DNA from: Candidatus Nomurabacteria bacterium
GTDB taxonomy: Bacteria > Patescibacteriota > Minisyncoccia > Phycocordibacterales > UBA9973
Reading direction: 5' to 3'
Length of the DNA stretch: 63,154 nucleotides
Assembly: GCA_943354905.1 (NCBI GenBank)
Contig: CALRDL010000003.1
Span: 1-63,154 of the forward strand
Shown: piece by piece, positions 34,976 through 49,701 of the stretch
Layout: every line of letters begins with the position of its first letter
How positions within the stretch are numbered: position 1 is the first letter of the stretch
Program-made: the position numbers and the translations under genes
Notes under the pieces: model-generated
Database searches by the model: none
Told to the model about the DNA's origin: nothing
The model's input: the letters and a program-made list of their open reading frames with translations, nothing else

Positions 34976-36435
34976 GAATTTTGAATACTTCTCCAAAAAA
35001 GTATATAAAAAAAATATACATAAATTAGTATTACAAAAATAAGCGGAAAGTCTGGAAAAACAATAGAAGCAAAAGAAAGCTTGGAGAAGAAATCTATAAC
35101 TCCAAGTTCATAATGCAAAAATAAATACGAGATAAATCCCAGTGGCACAGAAAATCCATACCAAAATAGCCCAGCAAATCCAGTCAAAAATCCGAGAAGC
35201 ATTGTGAAAGGTATAAATGGCAAAATTAAAAAATTTGCGGGCAAAGCAACTAAAGAAAGATTCCCCATCTTATAAAGTATAAACGGAGTTACAAATACAT
35301 AAGCCGAGAAAGTAACCGAAGCTATCTCGCGAAGAGCAAAATTTTTAGGAACCCATAAGAAATATTTTTCAATTCTTGGAGTTAAAAATATCACCGCAAT
35401 AGTCGCTAGAAATGAAAGTTGGAAAGAAACATCAAAGACTAAGACGAAAGGATTTATTAAAATCATAAAAACCCCAGCGAGGACAAGAGCTCGTGCGACA
35501 TCATAATTTCGCCCTGTCGCGCGAGCGAAGAGTGTAAGAGTGGCCATGATTCCAGCACGTATCGCAGTCGAACCAAAACCAGTCATTAAAATAAAAAGCC
35601 AAACTAGAAAAATTCCAGCCCCAATACTAGCACTCAAAGAGAAAATTTTAGAGAAACTTAAAAATTTCATAAACCATTCAGCTACTATGGTAACGTTATA
35701 ACCCGAGAGAGCGACGATATGGATAGTCCCAGTATTTATAAAATTATTTCGAAGCTCAGAACTAAAAGCAGCCTTCTCTCCTAGGATGAGTCCACCCATG
35801 AGTAAATTTTCTGGATTCGCAATATTCAAATCAATATTTCGCAAAAATTTCTTTTTAAAAGAAAATAAAATACTTTTTACAAAATTCCCATTATCACGAG
35901 AAACAATTTCTGCAGTTACGTAATTCATGACGTAATATATTCCATCTTTGCGCAAATAGTTTATATAATCAAATTCTTTCCCTTGATCAGTTATGAAATT
36001 TTCTGGCTTTTGCAGAATACCCTTAAAATTTATTTCGTCACCGTATTTAAATTCTTCACCAAAAGGAACAGTGACTAAAATTTTCGTGGTGGAAGGAGCC
36101 ACCAACACTGTTAATTTCTGATTATTCTCCGTGATATCTGGCTGGTCCACAATCTCTCCAGATAAAGTTACTTTCCCTCCCACTTGTGATTCGAAAAATT
36201 CCGGATTTGGTTTATCAACCATATCAAATCTCAAAATACCAAGCGAAAAAAATAAAATAAGACATGAGATGATTAATCCCATTCCAAAATTCTTTACTAT
36301 ACAGAAAAACAAAATAACCAATAGAGCTACAACTCCAAACCAGATAACTAAATATAAATTTACAAAAACAAAAGACCGCAACAACACTCCAAAAATAAAT
36401 CCAAAACAAGATGAGTAAAATATTTTATCTTGCAT
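34972..36435 (-). CDS. comEC: ComEC/Rec2 competence channel (DUF4131 + Competence domains, without MBL)
   Basis: 487 aa and polytopic, with an OB-like segment (KVTLSGEIVDQP...LTVL) followed by multiple TM helices. Confidence 0.75.
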   Translation of the reverse strand: MQDKIFYSSCFGFIFGVLLRSFVFVNLYLVIWFGVVALLVILFFCIVKNFGMGLIISCLILFFSLGILRFDMVDKPNPEFFESQVGGKVTLSGEIVDQPDITENNQKLTVLVAPSTTKILVTVPFGEEFKYGDEINFKGILQKPENFITDQGKEFDYINYLRKDGIYYVMNYVTAEIVSRDNGNFVKSILFSFKKKFLRNIDLNIANPENLLMGGLILGEKAAFSSELRNNFINTGTIHIVALSGYNVTIVAEWFMKFLSFSKIFSLSASIGAGIFLVWLFILMTGFGSTAIRAGIMATLTLFARATGRNYDVARALVLAGVFMILINPFVLVFDVSFQLSFLATIAVIFLTPRIEKYFLWVPKNFALREIASVTFSAYVFVTPFILYKMGNLSLVALPANFLILPFIPFTMLLGFLTGFAGLFWYGFSVPLGFISYLFLHYELGVIDFFSKLSFASIVFPDFPLIFVILIYVYFFYILFWRSIQNS

Positions 36436-43252: not shown

Positions 43253-44752
43253 ATGAAAATTTTTAAAAATAAAAAAGAAAATGGGATGATAATAATACAG
43301 ACGATAGTGTTTAGTTCCGTTGCTGTGATAATAATCGGAGCCCTCTCAAGCTGGGCAGGTAATACTATAAAATCTGGAAGAGTAGCCTTTAATCGAGAAC
43401 AGGCGCTCCAGTCAGCTGAAGCCGGAATAGAATATTATCGTTGGCATCTAGCTCATGCTCCATCGGATTATCAAGACGGAACAGGAGGAGCAGGACCTTA
43501 TATCCACTCTCTTAAAGATAAAATGGGAAACACTGTTGGGCAATTTTCTTTAACTATAACTCCTCCATCTTCTGGTTCCACATTAGTAAAAATTAAATCT
43601 AGTGGAACATCTTCTCTAGATTCATCTTTTTCAAGAAAAATATTGAGCCAAGTAGCCAAGCCTTCTATCGCTGAAAATGCTTTTGTGGGCAATGATGCAA
43701 TGCGTTTTGGAGAGGGTACAGAAATTTTTGGAAGCATTCACTCAAATGGTGGAATTCGTTTTGATGGCTATACCCACAATGTAGTCTCGAGTGGATTTAG
43801 GATCTATGATGATGCCGATCACTTTGGTTTAGCTGAAATCGGCGTACATACTCACGTGCGAGTTCCACCAGCAACTGGAGTAAATGATGGCGTCACCAGT
43901 GAAACAAACGCTAACTCTATACCAAACAGAACAGATGTTTTCGCAGCCGGACGCAGAATCGAACAACCGACTATAGATTTTTCAGGATTTACCGGAGACA
44001 TAGCCAATCTAAAAACTGCATCCCAATCATCTGGTGGATTTTATCGAGACATATCTGATAGTGGTTTCGATACTAGTTTCGTCGGGTATCACATAGTTTT
44101 AAAAACCGATGACACTTTTGATCTATATAAAATAAATAGCTGGGTCAGCATGAGTGATAATGGATGTATTACTTTGTCACCAAATAATTCCAGCTGGAGC
44201 ATAGACACCCAAACCTTGCAAGGCAATTATGCATTTCCAGCAAATGGAATAATATTTTTAGAAGATCACGTAGTGGTAGATGGTCAGATAGATAACGCTA
44301 GGCTTACTATTGTCGCTGCTTCATTACCAGAACCTTCGGATGCCTCTCAATATAAAAATATTATTATCAACAACGATCTTTTATATACAAATTATAATGG
44401 TACAGACTCTCTGGGGCTTGTGGGGCAGGGTGGAGTGATGGTGGGTATGATTAGCGAAGATAATTTAAAAATAGACGGAGCGTTGATGGCTCAGCGCAAC
44501 AAAGTAGGGAGATTTTATTATGGTAATGGTTTTGGTAATAAAAAGAATTGTGTGTATAAGAATCGAAATATAGTAACTCTCTATGGAATGATCGCTTCTT
44601 ATGCCAGATATGGATTTACTTTTACAAACGGTACTGGCTATACGACCAGAAATATAAATTATGATGGAAATCTTCTTTACGCTCCGCCACCATTATTTCC
44701 CCTCACTTCCGATCAATATAAAATTCTCTCTTGGCAAGAAGTAAGAAATTAA
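43253..44752 (+). CDS. PilX-like large pilus-associated protein
   Basis: N-terminal hydrophobic helix GMIIIQTIVFSSVAVIIIGAL. 499 aa, third gene of the pilin cluster. Confidence 0.55.
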   Translation: MKIFKNKKENGMIIIQTIVFSSVAVIIIGALSSWAGNTIKSGRVAFNREQALQSAEAGIEYYRWHLAHAPSDYQDGTGGAGPYIHSLKDKMGNTVGQFSLTITPPSSGSTLVKIKSSGTSSLDSSFSRKILSQVAKPSIAENAFVGNDAMRFGEGTEIFGSIHSNGGIRFDGYTHNVVSSGFRIYDDADHFGLAEIGVHTHVRVPPATGVNDGVTSETNANSIPNRTDVFAAGRRIEQPTIDFSGFTGDIANLKTASQSSGGFYRDISDSGFDTSFVGYHIVLKTDDTFDLYKINSWVSMSDNGCITLSPNNSSWSIDTQTLQGNYAFPANGIIFLEDHVVVDGQIDNARLTIVAASLPEPSDASQYKNIIINNDLLYTNYNGTDSLGLVGQGGVMVGMISEDNLKIDGALMAQRNKVGRFYYGNGFGNKKNCVYKNRNIVTLYGMIASYARYGFTFTNGTGYTTRNINYDGNLLYAPPPLFPLTSDQYKILSWQEVRN

Positions 44753-45012
44753 AAAAATCTATAAATGTCTTTATGGTGGCCTATAAAAAGAAAGGTTACC
44801 TGTTCACCTTCAAAATGAAAGACTACTCTGTAAGTTTGATCCACACGAAAACTCCAAAGACTATTTTTCTTCGGCATCAATTTTTCTGTATTAAGAGAAG
44901 GATAAAAAAGATTTTCCTTAAAGATTTTTTCCTGTCTTTCTGCTTTGATTTTTATAATGTTAGGAAGCTTTTTATACAGAGAAACAAATTTCCGTGTATA
45001 AAATATTTTCAT
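44749..45012 (-). CDS. RelE/ParE-superfamily toxin
   Basis: WSFRVDQTYRVVFHFEGEQVTFLFIGHHKDIY signature. Confidence 0.65.
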   Translation of the reverse strand: MKIFYTRKFVSLYKKLPNIIKIKAERQEKIFKENLFYPSLNTEKLMPKKNSLWSFRVDQTYRVVFHFEGEQVTFLFIGHHKDIYRFF

Positions 45013-45019
45013 AGAAAAA

Positions 45020-45217
45020 TTATCTAAAATCTTTTAAGCTACTTGCTTTTACAATCTTTCTGGATTTCATATCGCGTAGAGATTCATCAATATCTTGTAG
45101 AAATTTTGGCTGAAAAAGACCAAGTGAATTAGCAATGCGTTCAAGAGCTGATAAATCTACATTTACAGAGTATTTTCTAGTATTAGGATTTTTAGTTGTT
45201 ATCGTCATTAAATTCAT
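45020..45217 (-). CDS. Putative cognate antitoxin
   Basis: 65-aa ORF 7 nt upstream of the toxin. Confidence 0.5.
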   Translation of the reverse strand: MNLMTITTKNPNTRKYSVNVDLSALERIANSLGLFQPKFLQDIDESLRDMKSRKIVKASSLKDFR

Positions 45218-45270
45218 AACTACATGATATCAAATTTTACAAAAAATGCAATGCTAAATCCATAAAGACT

Positions 45271-45364
45271 ATTGAATACTATCTAACACAGAATAGAGTG
45301 GCGAGATCATAGAGATGGCGAAGAATCCGACCCCAGCACCGATGATGATCATTAAAACTGGTTC
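45271..45364 (-). pseudogene. Duplicated 3' end of pilC (31 codons plus stop); direct repeat copy A
   Basis: 93/94 nt identical to 46724-46817. Translates to [31 protein letters not shown]. Confidence 0.9.
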
Positions 45365-45376
45365 CTTTTTTAAATA

Positions 45377-46561
45377 TTAATTAATTGTTGATGGAGGAGT
45401 TGAATTTGGAACAATATTAGCAATCGTTGCTTTCTTTTTATTTTTAATCACGATAAAGAAAGCTATGAGTACCCCAACAGTAACGACAAGGGCGATAATA
45501 AGTGCGATAAGACTATGTAAGAGCATTGAGATGAAAATAGTAACAATACTCAACACAAACGCAACTAAGAACGTTATTCCCCCAATCAACGAACGACTTA
45601 TTGTGCCAAAAATTGGTAAGATGTCTGCTAGAACACTGATTGGTCTAAACAAAATCGACAAACCAAGCCACATCAACAAAAATCCAAGCAATCGCAAAAT
45701 CCAAAGCAATGTCGTGTATTCTGTGTGGAGCGTGGCGATTCCTTGATCACGTGTACCAATGAATACGCGATAAAGATTATTTCCGTCTTGGTCAGAATAC
45801 GGATCAATTTTACTTTCGCTCAATTTTCCAAAAATTGTACCGTCAAACCCCGGACGTAAAACGTGATAACTTATACGTAAATCTCCAACTTGCGGACTAT
45901 CGAAAGTACCACTTTCGCTTTCTTTAATAAAGAGATAACTATCATCTGCTAAAGTCGCACCGCCACTCAAAGCTGTGTTTTGAGAATTAAGCGTAAGTTG
46001 AGAAAAACTTGGAAGCGTGACACTTTGCGGGTCAAAATTGTAAGCTCCGATTGTTGCGATAGTAACTTTATTGGTATAATTGTCCAAACTTTTCTGGGGA
46101 TTTTCGTGTTCTTCGGGGTATTTGAAATCACTTGTGGACTCTGGATTTTCTTCCCAACCTTTTGAGTAAGTGTAGGTTGTTTCAGTTGTCTCTGAACCGC
46201 CAGTACTTGTTTTACTACGAGATTCTGATTTTTCTATCCATGAGTACATTTCCACCTCACGCTCTACAGCGATAAATTTATCTGGATTCAAAAATAAATT
46301 ATCCCCAATAATTTGATCAGAGTTTACAACACCAGTTGTAGAAATAAGTTTTCCATCTAGTGATGAGTCGGTACCAACAACAGCAGAACTTATCTCGGTA
46401 GCAGTTTTTGCAATATTTGATAAATCAACTCGCCCCTCATTAGAATAGAGCAAACCAAAAGAAACAACAAAAAAAATTAGTCCGGCGACAACACCTTTTA
46501 TCGAGTCAATAATTCGGCTACCGTATCCTGTTGTCGTTGTTTCTGAAAATGAATCAGGCAT
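45377..46561 (-). CDS. TMEM43/DUF1625-family membrane protein
   Basis: An N-terminal TM helix is followed by LLYSNEGRV (the family pattern is LxWNEGR), a large beta-rich domain and about 3 C-terminal TM helices. Confidence 0.6.
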   Translation of the reverse strand: MPDSFSETTTTGYGSRIIDSIKGVVAGLIFFVVSFGLLYSNEGRVDLSNIAKTATEISSAVVGTDSSLDGKLISTTGVVNSDQIIGDNLFLNPDKFIAVEREVEMYSWIEKSESRSKTSTGGSETTETTYTYSKGWEENPESTSDFKYPEEHENPQKSLDNYTNKVTIATIGAYNFDPQSVTLPSFSQLTLNSQNTALSGGATLADDSYLFIKESESGTFDSPQVGDLRISYHVLRPGFDGTIFGKLSESKIDPYSDQDGNNLYRVFIGTRDQGIATLHTEYTTLLWILRLLGFLLMWLGLSILFRPISVLADILPIFGTISRSLIGGITFLVAFVLSIVTIFISMLLHSLIALIIALVVTVGVLIAFFIVIKNKKKATIANIVPNSTPPSTIN

Positions 46562-46721
46562 ATATTTTTATTTTTATTTTTAAAAGTTAATTAATTAATT
46601 TTCGACGTGCTTATAGTTTACTCCCCCGTCCAAATTTTTACAATAGCTAATTCTAAATACTCCAAATAAACTTGTTTATATTACAACACAAATATATTCT
46701 CTGCCTAAGCCAGCTTGGAGA

Positions 46722-47939
46722 TTATTGAATACTATCTAACACAGAATAAAGTGGCGAGATCATAGAGATGGCGAAGAATCCGACCCCAGCACCGATGATG
46801 ATCATTAAAACTGGTTCGATGATAGTAGAAAGATTTTTAGTTTTATTTTCAATTTCTTCTTCGTAAAATAAAGCAATCTGGAGCAACATATCCGAAAGTT
46901 TCCCTGTCTCTTCTCCGACCTGAATCATCTCTGACATCATAACTGGATAAAGATCGGAATGAGCTTTAAAAACTTCAGAAAATGGAGAGCCATGTTCGAT
47001 AGAAGTTTTGGCTTCATTTAAAACTTTTTTGAAATAAATATTTTGCACCACATCTTCAGTTATTTCAACGGCTCGGATAATAGAAACACCAGAAAGTAAA
47101 AGGGATGCAAGGGTTCGCGCAGTACGAGCAGTATTTAATTCTTTGACAATCGTCCCAATAATCGGAAGTTTCAAAATAGTATAATGGATATATTTCGCCA
47201 TAAATTTTGCCCGAAAAATAGAATAAAAAGCTCCAGCCAAGCCAATAAGTAAAACAAAAGTAAGAATCAAGTTATTTGAAAAAAAATTTCCAAAATAAAT
47301 AATAATCCGAGTAGATATGGGCAGCATAACGCCCAATTCTTTAAATGTACTGGCTAAAGTCGGTACAACAAAAGCAAACATAAGCACACCGATCACCACC
47401 ATAGCTCCGAGGATAACTCCGGGATAAATGAGAGCACTTTTGACTTTCTTAGTTAGAGAGTTTGTTTTTTCCAAATTGCCACTAATATCAGAAAGCGCTC
47501 CAGCTAAATTCCCCGATTCCTCGCCGGCCTTGGTCATGGATACGAAAAGTTTGGAAAATACATCTGGAAATTTTGAGAGACTGGAAGAAAAAGTCTCGCC
47601 AGAATTTATATCACTAGACAATGATTTTAAAATTTTATTTAAAGTAACATTTTTTGTTTGTTTTTCGAGCACAGATAAAGCTCTCGAAAGAGAAAGCCCG
47701 GCCTTGAGCATTCCGCTCAAATTTTTAGTAAAAATTATTTGCTCATTAATACTTATTTTAAAAAAAATATTTCTAATCTTTGCTATATTTTCAGAAAAAT
47801 TATTTTTTTTTTCTGAAATCGATATAGGTGTATATCCCCGAGAACGTAGCTCGTGAGCTATAGAGAATCGATCGATAGATTCTAGTGCGCCTTCGAGAAT
47901 CTCACCTGTTTTTGTTTTAGCTTTGTAAAAAAATAGCAT
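46722..47939 (-). CDS. pilC: Type IV pilus platform protein PilC (GspF family)
   Basis: Two GspF repeats and the C-terminus [25 protein letters not shown]. Confidence 0.9.
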   Translation of the reverse strand: MLFFYKAKTKTGEILEGALESIDRFSIAHELRSRGYTPISISEKKNNFSENIAKIRNIFFKISINEQIIFTKNLSGMLKAGLSLSRALSVLEKQTKNVTLNKILKSLSSDINSGETFSSSLSKFPDVFSKLFVSMTKAGEESGNLAGALSDISGNLEKTNSLTKKVKSALIYPGVILGAMVVIGVLMFAFVVPTLASTFKELGVMLPISTRIIIYFGNFFSNNLILTFVLLIGLAGAFYSIFRAKFMAKYIHYTILKLPIIGTIVKELNTARTARTLASLLLSGVSIIRAVEITEDVVQNIYFKKVLNEAKTSIEHGSPFSEVFKAHSDLYPVMMSEMIQVGEETGKLSDMLLQIALFYEEEIENKTKNLSTIIEPVLMIIIGAGVGFFAISMISPLYSVLDSIQ

Positions 47940-47949
47940 CTTATTTAAT

Positions 47950-49701
47950 TTATTCGGAAACCACACGAAATACTTCTTCTAAAGAAGTCACCCCGAGCAC
48001 TGCCTGAAAAACTCCATCTTCAAGCATAGTCATCATTCCTTCTTTCTTGGCTTGCACTTCTACTTCATCTTGAGAACTTCCTTTGATGATCATATCTCGT
48101 ATAGTAGAAGTTACTTTTAAAACTTCGTGCATACCGATACGATTTGAATATCCATCTGGGAACTCAGTAGTTTTCACTGGTTTGTAAAAAGGAATTTTAT
48201 CCCAAGTATCATGCTCGCCGACGATTTTTTCTATTTTTAGTAAAGTAAGCATACGATCGATGTCGACAATCTTGGCTAAATTCTTTTTTTCAGCTTCGGA
48301 TAAAAAGTATTTTTCTTTAGCTGGCGTAAGTCTTCGTATCAATCTCTGAGCGATAATAGTCTTGACTGTAGCTGTAATCAAAAAAGGTTCGACTCCCATG
48401 TCTATCATTCTAGGTACGGCCCCAGAAGCTGAGTTCGTGTGGATAGTAGACAAAACCAAGTGACCAGTGAGTGAAGCGTTGACGGCTAATCCTGCTGTCT
48501 CGCTATCACGCACCTCTCCGACCATGATGATATCTGGATCTTGTCGGAGGAGTGAACGAAGTCCGTTAGCAAAAGTAAGTCCTATCTCCGGTTTGACTTG
48601 AGTCTGATTCACTCTCGGCATTTGATATTCAATAGGATCTTCAACAGTAGAAATATTTACTTCTGGTTTGTTTAAAATCTCGAGCATAGTATAAAGCGTC
48701 GTCGTCTTACCCGAACCAGTCGGTCCAGTCGCTAGGATCATCCCAGTTCTTTGTTTTAAAGAATCATGAATTCGCTCGAGAGCTTCACCGTGAAACCCTA
48801 GAGTTTCCAAAGTATAACCATGAGAATTTTCTTTGAGTAATCGAATAACAGTTTTTTCTCCAAAAAAAGTTGGCAAAATAGAAACACGAAAAGAAATCTT
48901 TTCTCCATTATCTTCTTTTTTAAATCTTCCATCTTGTGGCAATCTTTTTTCGTCAAGTTTCAAATTTGCGAGAACTTTAATACGAGCGGTGATACCGGAG
49001 GCCGCGCTTTTGTCGAGCACCATCGCGTCATGCAATATGCCATCTATACGATAACGAATAGTCAGATCTTTTTCTCCTGGCTCAATATGAATATCTGAAG
49101 CATTTTGTAAAATAGCGTGAAAAACAAGTGAATCAACTATCTTTATAACTGGCAAATCTTCCGCCATTTCTTTTAATTCAGTCGCTGACTTTTCTTTATC
49201 CTCCACTTTATTTGATTCTTTAATATTATTTGATTCTTTTTGAATAATATTATCAAATTCTACTTGTAAACTTTTCCTGTACTGAACAAGCACTGCCTTG
49301 ATAGAAACAGTGTCTGTAAGACGAGATAAAATTTTAAAACCAGAACGTTTTTTTATAAAATCAATAACTGGAAGATCATCTACATCAAGCATGGCTACTT
49401 CGAGAGTGTCCCCATTTTTATTATAAGCTACAATATTATAATTTCTGGCTATGGGTTCTGGGATGAGAGAGAGTATGGTGAAATCTATCTTTTGACCTAC
49501 TAAACTTACAAAAGGAATACCTAAAACAAAAGCCTCCATGCGTTTTAGATCAGTTTCGGATATTTTACCTTCTGACAAAAGCACGTTGCCAAATTTTTGT
49601 TTCTTCTCTTGTGCTTTTTTAGCCACATCATCAAAATCAGAACGTTTTACAAGTCCTGAATCTAGGATAAATTTCTTTAACTGTTCTTCGTCTATTTGCA
49701 T
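47950..49701 (-). CDS. pilB: Type IV pilus assembly ATPase PilB (GspE family)
   Basis: Walker A GPTGSGKTTT, Asp/His boxes and an N-terminal GSPII_E_N-like domain. Confidence 0.9.
   Translation of the reverse strand: MQIDEEQLKKFILDSGLVKRSDFDDVAKKAQEKKQKFGNVLLSEGKISETDLKRMEAFVLGIPFVSLVGQKIDFTILSLIPEPIARNYNIVAYNKNGDTLEVAMLDVDDLPVIDFIKKRSGFKILSRLTDTVSIKAVLVQYRKSLQVEFDNIIQKESNNIKESNKVEDKEKSATELKEMAEDLPVIKIVDSLVFHAILQNASDIHIEPGEKDLTIRYRIDGILHDAMVLDKSAASGITARIKVLANLKLDEKRLPQDGRFKKEDNGEKISFRVSILPTFFGEKTVIRLLKENSHGYTLETLGFHGEALERIHDSLKQRTGMILATGPTGSGKTTTLYTMLEILNKPEVNISTVEDPIEYQMPRVNQTQVKPEIGLTFANGLRSLLRQDPDIIMVGEVRDSETAGLAVNASLTGHLVLSTIHTNSASGAVPRMIDMGVEPFLITATVKTIIAQRLIRRLTPAKEKYFLSEAEKKNLAKIVDIDRMLTLLKIEKIVGEHDTWDKIPFYKPVKTTEFPDGYSNRIGMHEVLKVTSTIRDMIIKGSSQDEVEVQAKKEGMMTMLEDGVFQAVLGVTSLEEVFRVVSE

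Follow-up and report, generated by a model that had tools for sequence, protein, structure and literature searches.

The window, as we call the whole 63,154-nt stretch of DNA analysed here, comes from an ultra-small lake bacterium of a Patescibacteria (Nomurabacteria-like) lineage whose assembly is 96% complete, and contains a short unit of foreign origin at the very end of pilC, the gene for the platform protein of the type IV pilus. The unit carries a single gene, encoding a 394-aa membrane protein of the TMEM43/DUF1625 family, and lies between two direct copies of the last codons of pilC, one of which completes an intact pilC while the other is an orphan. The locus is a case of a known class of insertions, those with long target duplication, with a new cargo and in a new bacterial group; the first-pass annotation had likened the repeats to the attachment sites of an integrating element, a reading that is not supported. 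The interpretation that we favour, with a probability of roughly 0.55, is a homology-anchored insertion of this class that proceeded without a dedicated recombinase. Insertion with long target duplication was seen in Helicobacter pylori, with restriction-modification genes as the insert (Nobusato et al. 2000, Gene 259:99), and was generalised by Furuta, Abe & Kobayashi 2010 (NAR 38:2428, PMC2853133) to a class in which direct repeats of >30 bp often lie over a start or stop codon, the target remains intact and mobility genes are absent. The cases are mostly from naturally competent species, and the mechanism is unsolved, a virus-like cycle through the repeats having been hypothesised (PMC2853133).

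A repeat search of the window places the direct repeat pair at 45266-45364 and 46719-46817, with 99 nt per copy, 97 of 99 identical and 1453 nt from start to start; the pair described at first, of 94 nt with 93 identities, is contained in it as its core. These two copies are the only ones in the whole 750,840-bp genome (whole-genome BLAST, E 1e-46 and 5e-44). As had been proposed, and as comparison of the open reading frames (ORFs) and their translations bears out, the right copy (A', 46719..46817, minus strand) is the true 3' end of pilC, in one piece with the intact pilC ORF, and has 31 codons followed by the TAA stop and 3 nt, whereas the left copy (A, 45266..45364, minus strand) is an orphan. 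It codes for the same 31 residues, ends with its own TAG and is preceded by the tail of the TMEM43 gene, not by pilC. The two mismatches between the copies are a leucine codon (CTT/CTC) and the stop (TAA/TAG). The insert of 1354 nt is composed of a leader of 157 nt with a promoter-like box (46562..46718, minus strand), the TMEM43 gene (45377..46561, minus strand) and a tail of 12 nt between its stop and the orphan (45365..45376, minus strand), the inner junction, which has neither microhomology nor an inverted repeat. The distance from the pilC stop to the next ATG is 160 nt, of which 157 nt are outside the repeat, in agreement with the spacer of 160 nt and the single 394-aa gene originally reported between the copies. 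The sequence marks are ...CTGGTTC|GATGATAG for the edge between the repeat and the body of pilC, TATTTAAAAAAG for the cargo tail and CCAAGCTGG for the leader.

The repeat is genuine and not a product of the assembly. Among the Logan contigs of run X1, the flanks have depths of 21 and 22 and the insert one of 22.8, and a 68-nt stretch identical in both copies forms a separate unitig of depth 40.2, about twice that of the flanks, as expected for a two-copy repeat around a single-copy insert; in run X3, too, the insert equals the flanks in depth and the common 68-mer is at 2x. Contig ends in the assembly overlap by exactly 149 nt, indicating that the final k of the assembler was about 150, greater than the repeat length. 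A separate assembly, a 6.6-kb MEGAHIT k141 contig from the European Nucleotide Archive (ENA), is 100% identical through pilB, pilC, the TMEM43 gene, a toxin-antitoxin-like pair, the gene of a 499-aa protein (p499) and both copies, and crossing the copies at this k needed reads that span the whole repeat plus both flanks. The caveat of the first-pass annotation, an assembly duplication betrayed by a coverage anomaly, is thus contradicted by flat depth in X1, by a k greater than the repeat and by the independent contig. No joint that skips the insert, indicative of an empty site or a circle, occurs in the assembled Logan contigs of four lake metagenome runs. In run X2 the contig of the insert (window 45335-46770) has a depth of 7.95 against about 5 in both flanks (approximately 1.5x); noise, a second carrier, a tandem array and an excised circle are possible sources of this excess.

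Orthologues of pilC are present in 24 genomes of the same genus, with 63-77% protein identity within the genus, and the pilC end is single-copy at this level. Between pilC and tpi, the gene for triose-phosphate isomerase, genomes of the genus have either of two minor-pilin cassettes (loci L029-L048): the commoner layout, found in most genomes, has four co-directional pilin-like genes behind pilC, and the minority layout, to which the window belongs, has a convergent set of three genes (439, 207 and 499 aa). The 499-aa gene ends 3-25 nt from the pilC stop in four relatives (G021, G003, G005 and G024), and one coiled-coil gene stands between the two in a further genome of the minority layout (G011). 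The window is equivalent to the minority layout plus about 1.97 kb, made up of the toxin-antitoxin pair, the orphan, the TMEM43 gene and the leader. Adjacency of the 499-aa gene and pilC, direct in the four relatives and nearly so in G011, is the ancestral layout. No orphan or second pilC end was found at the loci of 19 relatives, which argues that the arrangement is not an old shared tandem duplication; nor does the TMEM43 gene occur in the sampled relatives, contrary to the possibility, also raised at the outset, that all relatives share the arrangement with diverged repeats. The 65-aa/87-aa pair is absent from the pilC/p499 junction of the relatives. Insertion of a segment at the very end of pilC, with pilC intact and a 3' end displaced, is therefore supported. 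Among closer strains, exact-protein look-ups gave the same arrangement only, and there is no conspecific empty site in public data; the next closest pilC, with 87% identity, is followed by pilins. Extra genes of other kinds are found 3' of pilC in G014, G007, G046 and G011, so that the site looks like a local insertion hotspot. An apparent second orphan pilC end in G011 (C38:5398-5505) is merely due to two contigs that overlap by 336 nt with 95% identity, i.e. strain heterogeneity.

The cargo protein matches the TMEM43 family profile (PF07787, E 3.8e-53) with 180.8 bits against a curated cut-off of 23.3, over profile positions 1-248 of 250. Homologues were not found in the sampled genomes of the same genus (0/24, and 0/29 in a second sample of further genomes) or in others of the same order (0/16), and occur in 4 of 400 genomes of the class, each of another family. 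Identity of the window protein to these four copies is 80, 69, 68 and 36%, whereas PilB identity to the first three of these genomes is 40, 51 and 60%, compared with 75-86% within the genus. The cargo is far more similar across families than the core protein PilB, indicating lateral transfer: on sequence comparison, it is horizontally acquired. TMEM43 copies in a large protein database reach 87% identity; their contexts are unrelated, and none is beside pilC. Recurrence of TMEM43-like genes as cargo next to pilC, which the first-pass annotation had suggested checking, is therefore not found: the modules have different boundaries and never adjoin pilC. The insert has no anomaly of composition, and searches of PADLOC and NCBIfam gave no defence annotation for the cargo. 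TMEM43 homologues are often 434 aa long, compared with 394 aa in the window, and the orphan was considered as a lost tail of the gene; this was rejected, as the 40 aa by which the homologues are longer have no relation to PilC. In groundwater contigs (L049-L054), an identical 434-aa TMEM43 protein and its PLDc_N partner are found in at least four different upstream contexts. These PLDc_N-TMEM43 modules are flanked by inverted copies of 111 nt, 86% identical, that derive from paralogous genes of 65 and 69 aa; since each arm is simply one of these small paralogues and nothing points to inversion, an inversion device was rejected as their explanation.

The leader contains a box consisting of TTGTAA, a run of G and then TAAACTATAAG, and an 18-mer, GGGAGTAAACTATAAGCA (46608-46625, minus strand), which recurs identically upstream of the TMEM43 module of G158, a genome of another family. 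Other TMEM43 modules of Patescibacteria have a TTGnnA box, a run of 3-11 G and then TA(G/A)A-TATAAG. The unit therefore brings a promoter-like region with it, of a design common to modules elsewhere. In most other genomes the leader precedes a small PLDc_N membrane-protein gene ahead of TMEM43, a gene that the window lacks. The leader has no Rfam match and no fold signal (z-score +1), and scans with consensus promoters and terminators remain at background level. The variable G-run (3 to 11 G) between the boxes (window 46562-46650; L049, L050, L062, L063, L084) is not usual for AT-rich genomes, and might serve as a phase-variation switch operating by slipped-strand mispairing. The boundaries of the unit are not conserved between the window and G158: the left edge is 93 nt ahead of the motif in the former and 33 nt in the latter, and the right edge follows the stop after 12 nt and 3 nt, respectively. 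A repeat search detected no terminal inverted repeats at the ends of the insert.

Self-comparison of the genome revealed further cases of the same architecture. On contig C16 (C16:10330-12684), the final 39 codons and stop of a histidine-phosphatase gene are present as two 119-nt copies with 95% identity, which enclose the genes for an NgoPII-type restriction endonuclease (PF09521, E 5e-112) and for a C5 cytosine methylase (PF00145, E 4e-96). The orphan is 62 nt from secG, and relatives have the histidine-phosphatase gene and secG without the restriction-modification genes. On contig C1 (C1:4977-8788), the gene for glucose-6-phosphate dehydrogenase (G6PD) has its end duplicated in 57-nt copies around three genes, among them one for a glucose/sorbosone dehydrogenase, and the orphan has its own in-frame stop (...KAEDI* as opposed to ...KAEEIK*). 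The same contig also has four copies of the 5' end of a VirB6-like gene, 0.8 kb apart, which constitute gene-start stubs. In G158, a PLDc_N-TMEM43 module (L084, 5676-7418), with a TMEM43 protein 80% identical to that of the window, is enclosed by a perfect 52-nt (52/52) direct repeat, of which the left copy has its start at the CCA end of a tRNA gene, and the gene for a large serine recombinase is 1.6 kb away. This variety of targets, with repeats of 52, 57, 99 and 119 nt, speaks against a single site-specific system. Among side observations, the orphan of C16 has at its inner edge a GC-rich perfect hairpin, GTAGATAGGGGC..GCCCCTATCTAC, and the 423-aa cargo gene adjacent to the orphan of C1 ends in KAEDIK*, similar to the KAEEIK* of the G6PD end. 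A tblastn extension of the C16 orphan to 55 residues proved spurious, as nucleotide homology ends at 119 nt, beside the hairpin, and a search for an empty site of the G158 module found that the relatives match infC only.

Within the insert there is one gene, and no integrase, transposase or phage genes are found in or beside it. Profiles PF00589 and PF00239 have no match on the contig of pilC, and no integrase, resolvase or transposase lies anywhere on that contig, in accordance with the earlier observation of one cargo gene and no integrase. The recombinases of the genome, one Xer-like tyrosine recombinase and three large serine recombinases, are all on other contigs, and the sole tyrosine recombinase resembles the housekeeping Xer enzyme. 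The search for a recombinase elsewhere, which the first-pass annotation had suggested, thus yielded only these Xer-like and large serine enzymes. Among genes for DNA uptake, ComEC is encoded in the window at 34987-35790, and type IV pilus genes are also present in the genome.

A clue to the origin of the orphans is that the copies at pilC and at C16 differ only in ways that leave the encoded peptide unchanged. At pilC, 2 of 2 differences are synonymous or stop-to-stop, and at C16 all 7 nucleotide differences, which fall in 6 codons, are synonymous, the peptide of the orphan being that of the real C-terminus. With a freely decaying orphan, the probability of such a pattern is approximately 0.05-0.11 for pilC and 3e-5 to 5e-4 for C16, and the joint probability is about 1e-3 even with one fifth of the changes placed in the constrained copy. 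Derived states are found on both copies at C16. The pattern suggests that the stubs are ends of functional alleles, and not copies made at insertion and left to decay.

In the mechanism that we propose, a self-contained unit of about 1.35 kb, comprising the promoter-like leader and the TMEM43 gene, was acquired horizontally and placed exactly behind the pilC stop codon. The incoming DNA would have consisted of the cargo joined to the pilC end of a close relative, and a segment of 96-99 nt at the 3' end of pilC would have served for host homologous recombination acting on imported DNA, with DNA uptake as the probable mode of entry. The outcome would be a gene end, the cargo and a stub, one copy completing pilC and the other persisting as a dead stub behind the cargo. 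This might have been achieved by a Campbell-type single crossover of a circular molecule consisting of the pilC end and the cargo, or by a double crossover in which pilC supplied the left arm and the stub the short right one; by either route, the unit could enter any related genome regardless of the sequence downstream of pilC. Either route would also make the stub and the gene end look like two functional alleles, the origin that we infer for the two copies at pilC.

Several observations weigh against this mechanism. No match to the RecA family profile was found in the 96%-complete assembly; 24 of 26 genomes in the genus encode it, and the recA gene is probably in an assembly gap. An arm of 99 nt is short for homologous recombination. 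The first joining of the cargo tail to an internal point of pilC is left without explanation by the proposed routes, and the inner junction (AAAAAG|GAACC) has no microhomology with the pilC sequence ahead of the true copy. Neither an empty site at strain level, nor a donor genome, nor a circular or tandem form was found in Logan contigs and databases. A scan of 387 kb of a relative (G007) for similar brackets yielded paralogue ends and arrays only, indicating that the process is not pervasive. The synonymous signal of pilC by itself is weak: there are only two differences, and the closest relative (L059) matches the gene-attached copy at both variable sites, so that both changes could have occurred in the orphan after an in-place duplication.

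In-place duplication is the literal model of Nobusato and Furuta: the unit would have been joined at a staggered or processed double-strand break in the pilC end, repair synthesis would have copied 99 resident nt to both sides, and the mismatches would have arisen later. The architecture fits the published class, the 98% identity of the repeats is compatible with it, the states shared by the closest relative and the functional copy allow the changes to be placed on the orphan, and the perfect repeat of G158 (52/52) is as expected soon after duplication. A decaying orphan should, however, mostly gain non-synonymous or frame-breaking changes, instead of the 2 of 2 and 7 of 7 synonymous differences seen, with derived states on both copies at C16, and the orphan of C1 has an ending that is different yet in-frame and intact. 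On this evidence we consider in-place duplication unlikely. Homology-anchored insertion has likewise to be weighed against site-specific integration, in which the repeats would be the attL and attR of a small element whose attP carried a replacement pilC end, and the integrase would have been lost or would act in trans, as with cis-mobilizable elements (CIMEs). The 3' end of the target gene is indeed duplicated in direct repeats around an intact gene, the genome encodes recombinases elsewhere, and the G158 module adjoins the 3' end of a tRNA gene, with a large serine recombinase 1.6 kb away. The replacement end in particular, an idea of the first-pass annotation, receives some support from the synonymous-only differences (2/2 at pilC and 7/7 at C16), which fit a functional end borne by an element. 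Against it stand the lack of an integrase in or near the insert, the resemblance of the only tyrosine recombinase to housekeeping Xer, the lack of any other genome with the unit at pilC, unit boundaries that are not conserved, and the presence in one genome of three targets with repeats of 57, 99 and 119 nt, which would require several specificities; moreover, large serine recombinases are not known to make long identical repeats. Site-specific integration is therefore distinctly improbable: of the original proposal, insertion into the gene end stands, with its intact pilC and displaced end, whereas the integrase and att mechanism is not supported, as there is no recombinase in or near the insert.

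Two further explanations dispense with an insertion at pilC of the kind described. In one, a single pilC end would be followed by the toxin-antitoxin pair, and a 1.45-kb circle or a segment of another strain would have been threaded into the contig. The assembly graph is ambiguous at k=31 and the insert contig of X2 is about 1.5x deeper than its flanks, but insert and flanks are equal in depth in X1 and X3 with the common 68-mer at 2x, the assembly was made with k of about 150, and the independent k141 MEGAHIT contig spans both copies, making this artefact very improbable. In the other, an old tandem duplication, inherited vertically among the relatives, would now be decaying. This is scarcely credible: the presence of a repeat is all that speaks for it, the TMEM43 gene and orphan end were not found in any sampled relative, and the repeats are 98% identical, compared with 63-77% protein identity among the pilC orthologues of the genus.

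The neighbourhood of the unit is otherwise that of a pilus locus. The genes pilB, pilC and TMEM43, the orphan and the 65-aa/87-aa pair are all on the minus strand, and the 499-aa gene is convergent with them. Upstream of pilC in the same operon is pilB (47950..49701, minus strand; PF00437, E 1e-118), encoding the type IV pilus assembly ATPase. The pilC gene (46722..47966, minus strand; PF00482, E 1e-58) encodes a platform protein of the GspF/T2SSF family, and its start is probably at 47939, giving a product of 405 aa, the length of the database homologues. Assignment to the PilC/GspF family is based on two matched T2SSF stretches and on the pilB gene directly upstream. Between the orphan and the 499-aa gene is the lineage-specific toxin-antitoxin-like pair (44749-45217), which has no flanking repeat. 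It consists of a 65-aa putative antitoxin (45020..45217, minus strand), 48 nt from the orphan repeat and without a family match in profile, PADLOC and NCBIfam searches, and its partner, an 87-aa RelE/ParE/HigB-like toxin (44749..45012, minus strand; PF05015, E 3e-6, and PF24732, with TIGR02116 and TIGR02385 weak), of which the gene end overlaps that of the 499-aa gene by 4 nt. The latter (43253..44752, plus strand) encodes the pilus-associated protein p499 and, ancestrally, adjoined the 3' end of pilC directly. The orphan (window 45266-45379) is in frame with TMEM43, as TAA, four codons and then the 31 codons, and has an AAGGA box 10 nt ahead of an internal ATG, from which a hydrophobic peptide of 27 aa would be read; both the frame, which has a chance of one in three, and the peptide are probably coincidental.

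The locus illustrates a concrete way for a tiny genome to gain a gene without breaking an essential neighbour. The candidate phyla radiation (CPR)/Patescibacteria have tiny genomes with few classical mobile elements and patchy accessory genes. A broader idea, which we offer tentatively and regard as somewhat doubtful, is that Patescibacteria move small promoter-bearing units without a recombinase, using the stub of a neighbouring gene as a portable homology handle. If so, the gene and the stub would be two arms, which, as such or as an excised circle, would enter related genomes by natural transformation and RecA, and at each entry the gene end of the recipient would become the new stub. Such a process would account for the synonymous-only differences, for the loci at pilC, at the histidine-phosphatase and G6PD genes and at the VirB6-like gene starts, and for the scattering of near-identical TMEM43 genes across families. 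The apparent presence of two functional alleles is a testable clue to the mechanism, and orphan stubs of gene ends may be used as markers of recent gene gain in metagenome-assembled genomes.

Among known systems, DNA transposons and insertion sequences differ from the pilC locus, which has no inverted repeats or transposase and a duplication of 99 nt instead of less than about 15 bp. Integrase islands and CIMEs resemble it in the attL/attR-like repeats that duplicate a gene 3' end, in the rebuilt gene and in the orphan left behind, but the unit of the window is 1.35 kb with one gene, has no integrase, no conserved ends and no recurrence at pilC elsewhere, and its genome has several targets and repeat lengths. 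Campbell-type integration and homology-facilitated transformation yield the same product, homology-cargo-homology with a donor and a recipient copy, by host recombination only. The homology at pilC is just 99 nt, and the locus is known here from assembled sequence, with neither circle nor donor seen. Homology-facilitated illegitimate recombination, for its part, usually deletes recipient DNA and does not duplicate it. The gene-start stubs of the VirB6-like gene on contig C1 are likewise recombinase-free cargo units with a dead copy (60-150 nt) of a neighbouring gene; unlike the pilC case, they copy a 5' end, are serial and are more diverged (approximately 87% identity, with amino-acid changes). 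The closest likeness is to insertion with long target duplication: the insert at pilC is short (1354 nt, with a limit of 20 kb for the class) and without a mobility gene, its direct repeats of 99 nt exceed 30 bp and span a stop codon, pilC is intact, the lineage has genes for DNA uptake, and the same genome has a textbook example at C16, with restriction-modification genes as cargo. The pilC case differs in that its cargo is not a restriction-modification system but a TMEM43 membrane protein with its own promoter-like leader, in that its host belongs to the CPR/Patescibacteria, and in that its copies differ only at synonymous sites, giving the appearance of two alleles. It thereby extends the class to a membrane-protein cargo not related to defence, and to a new phylum.

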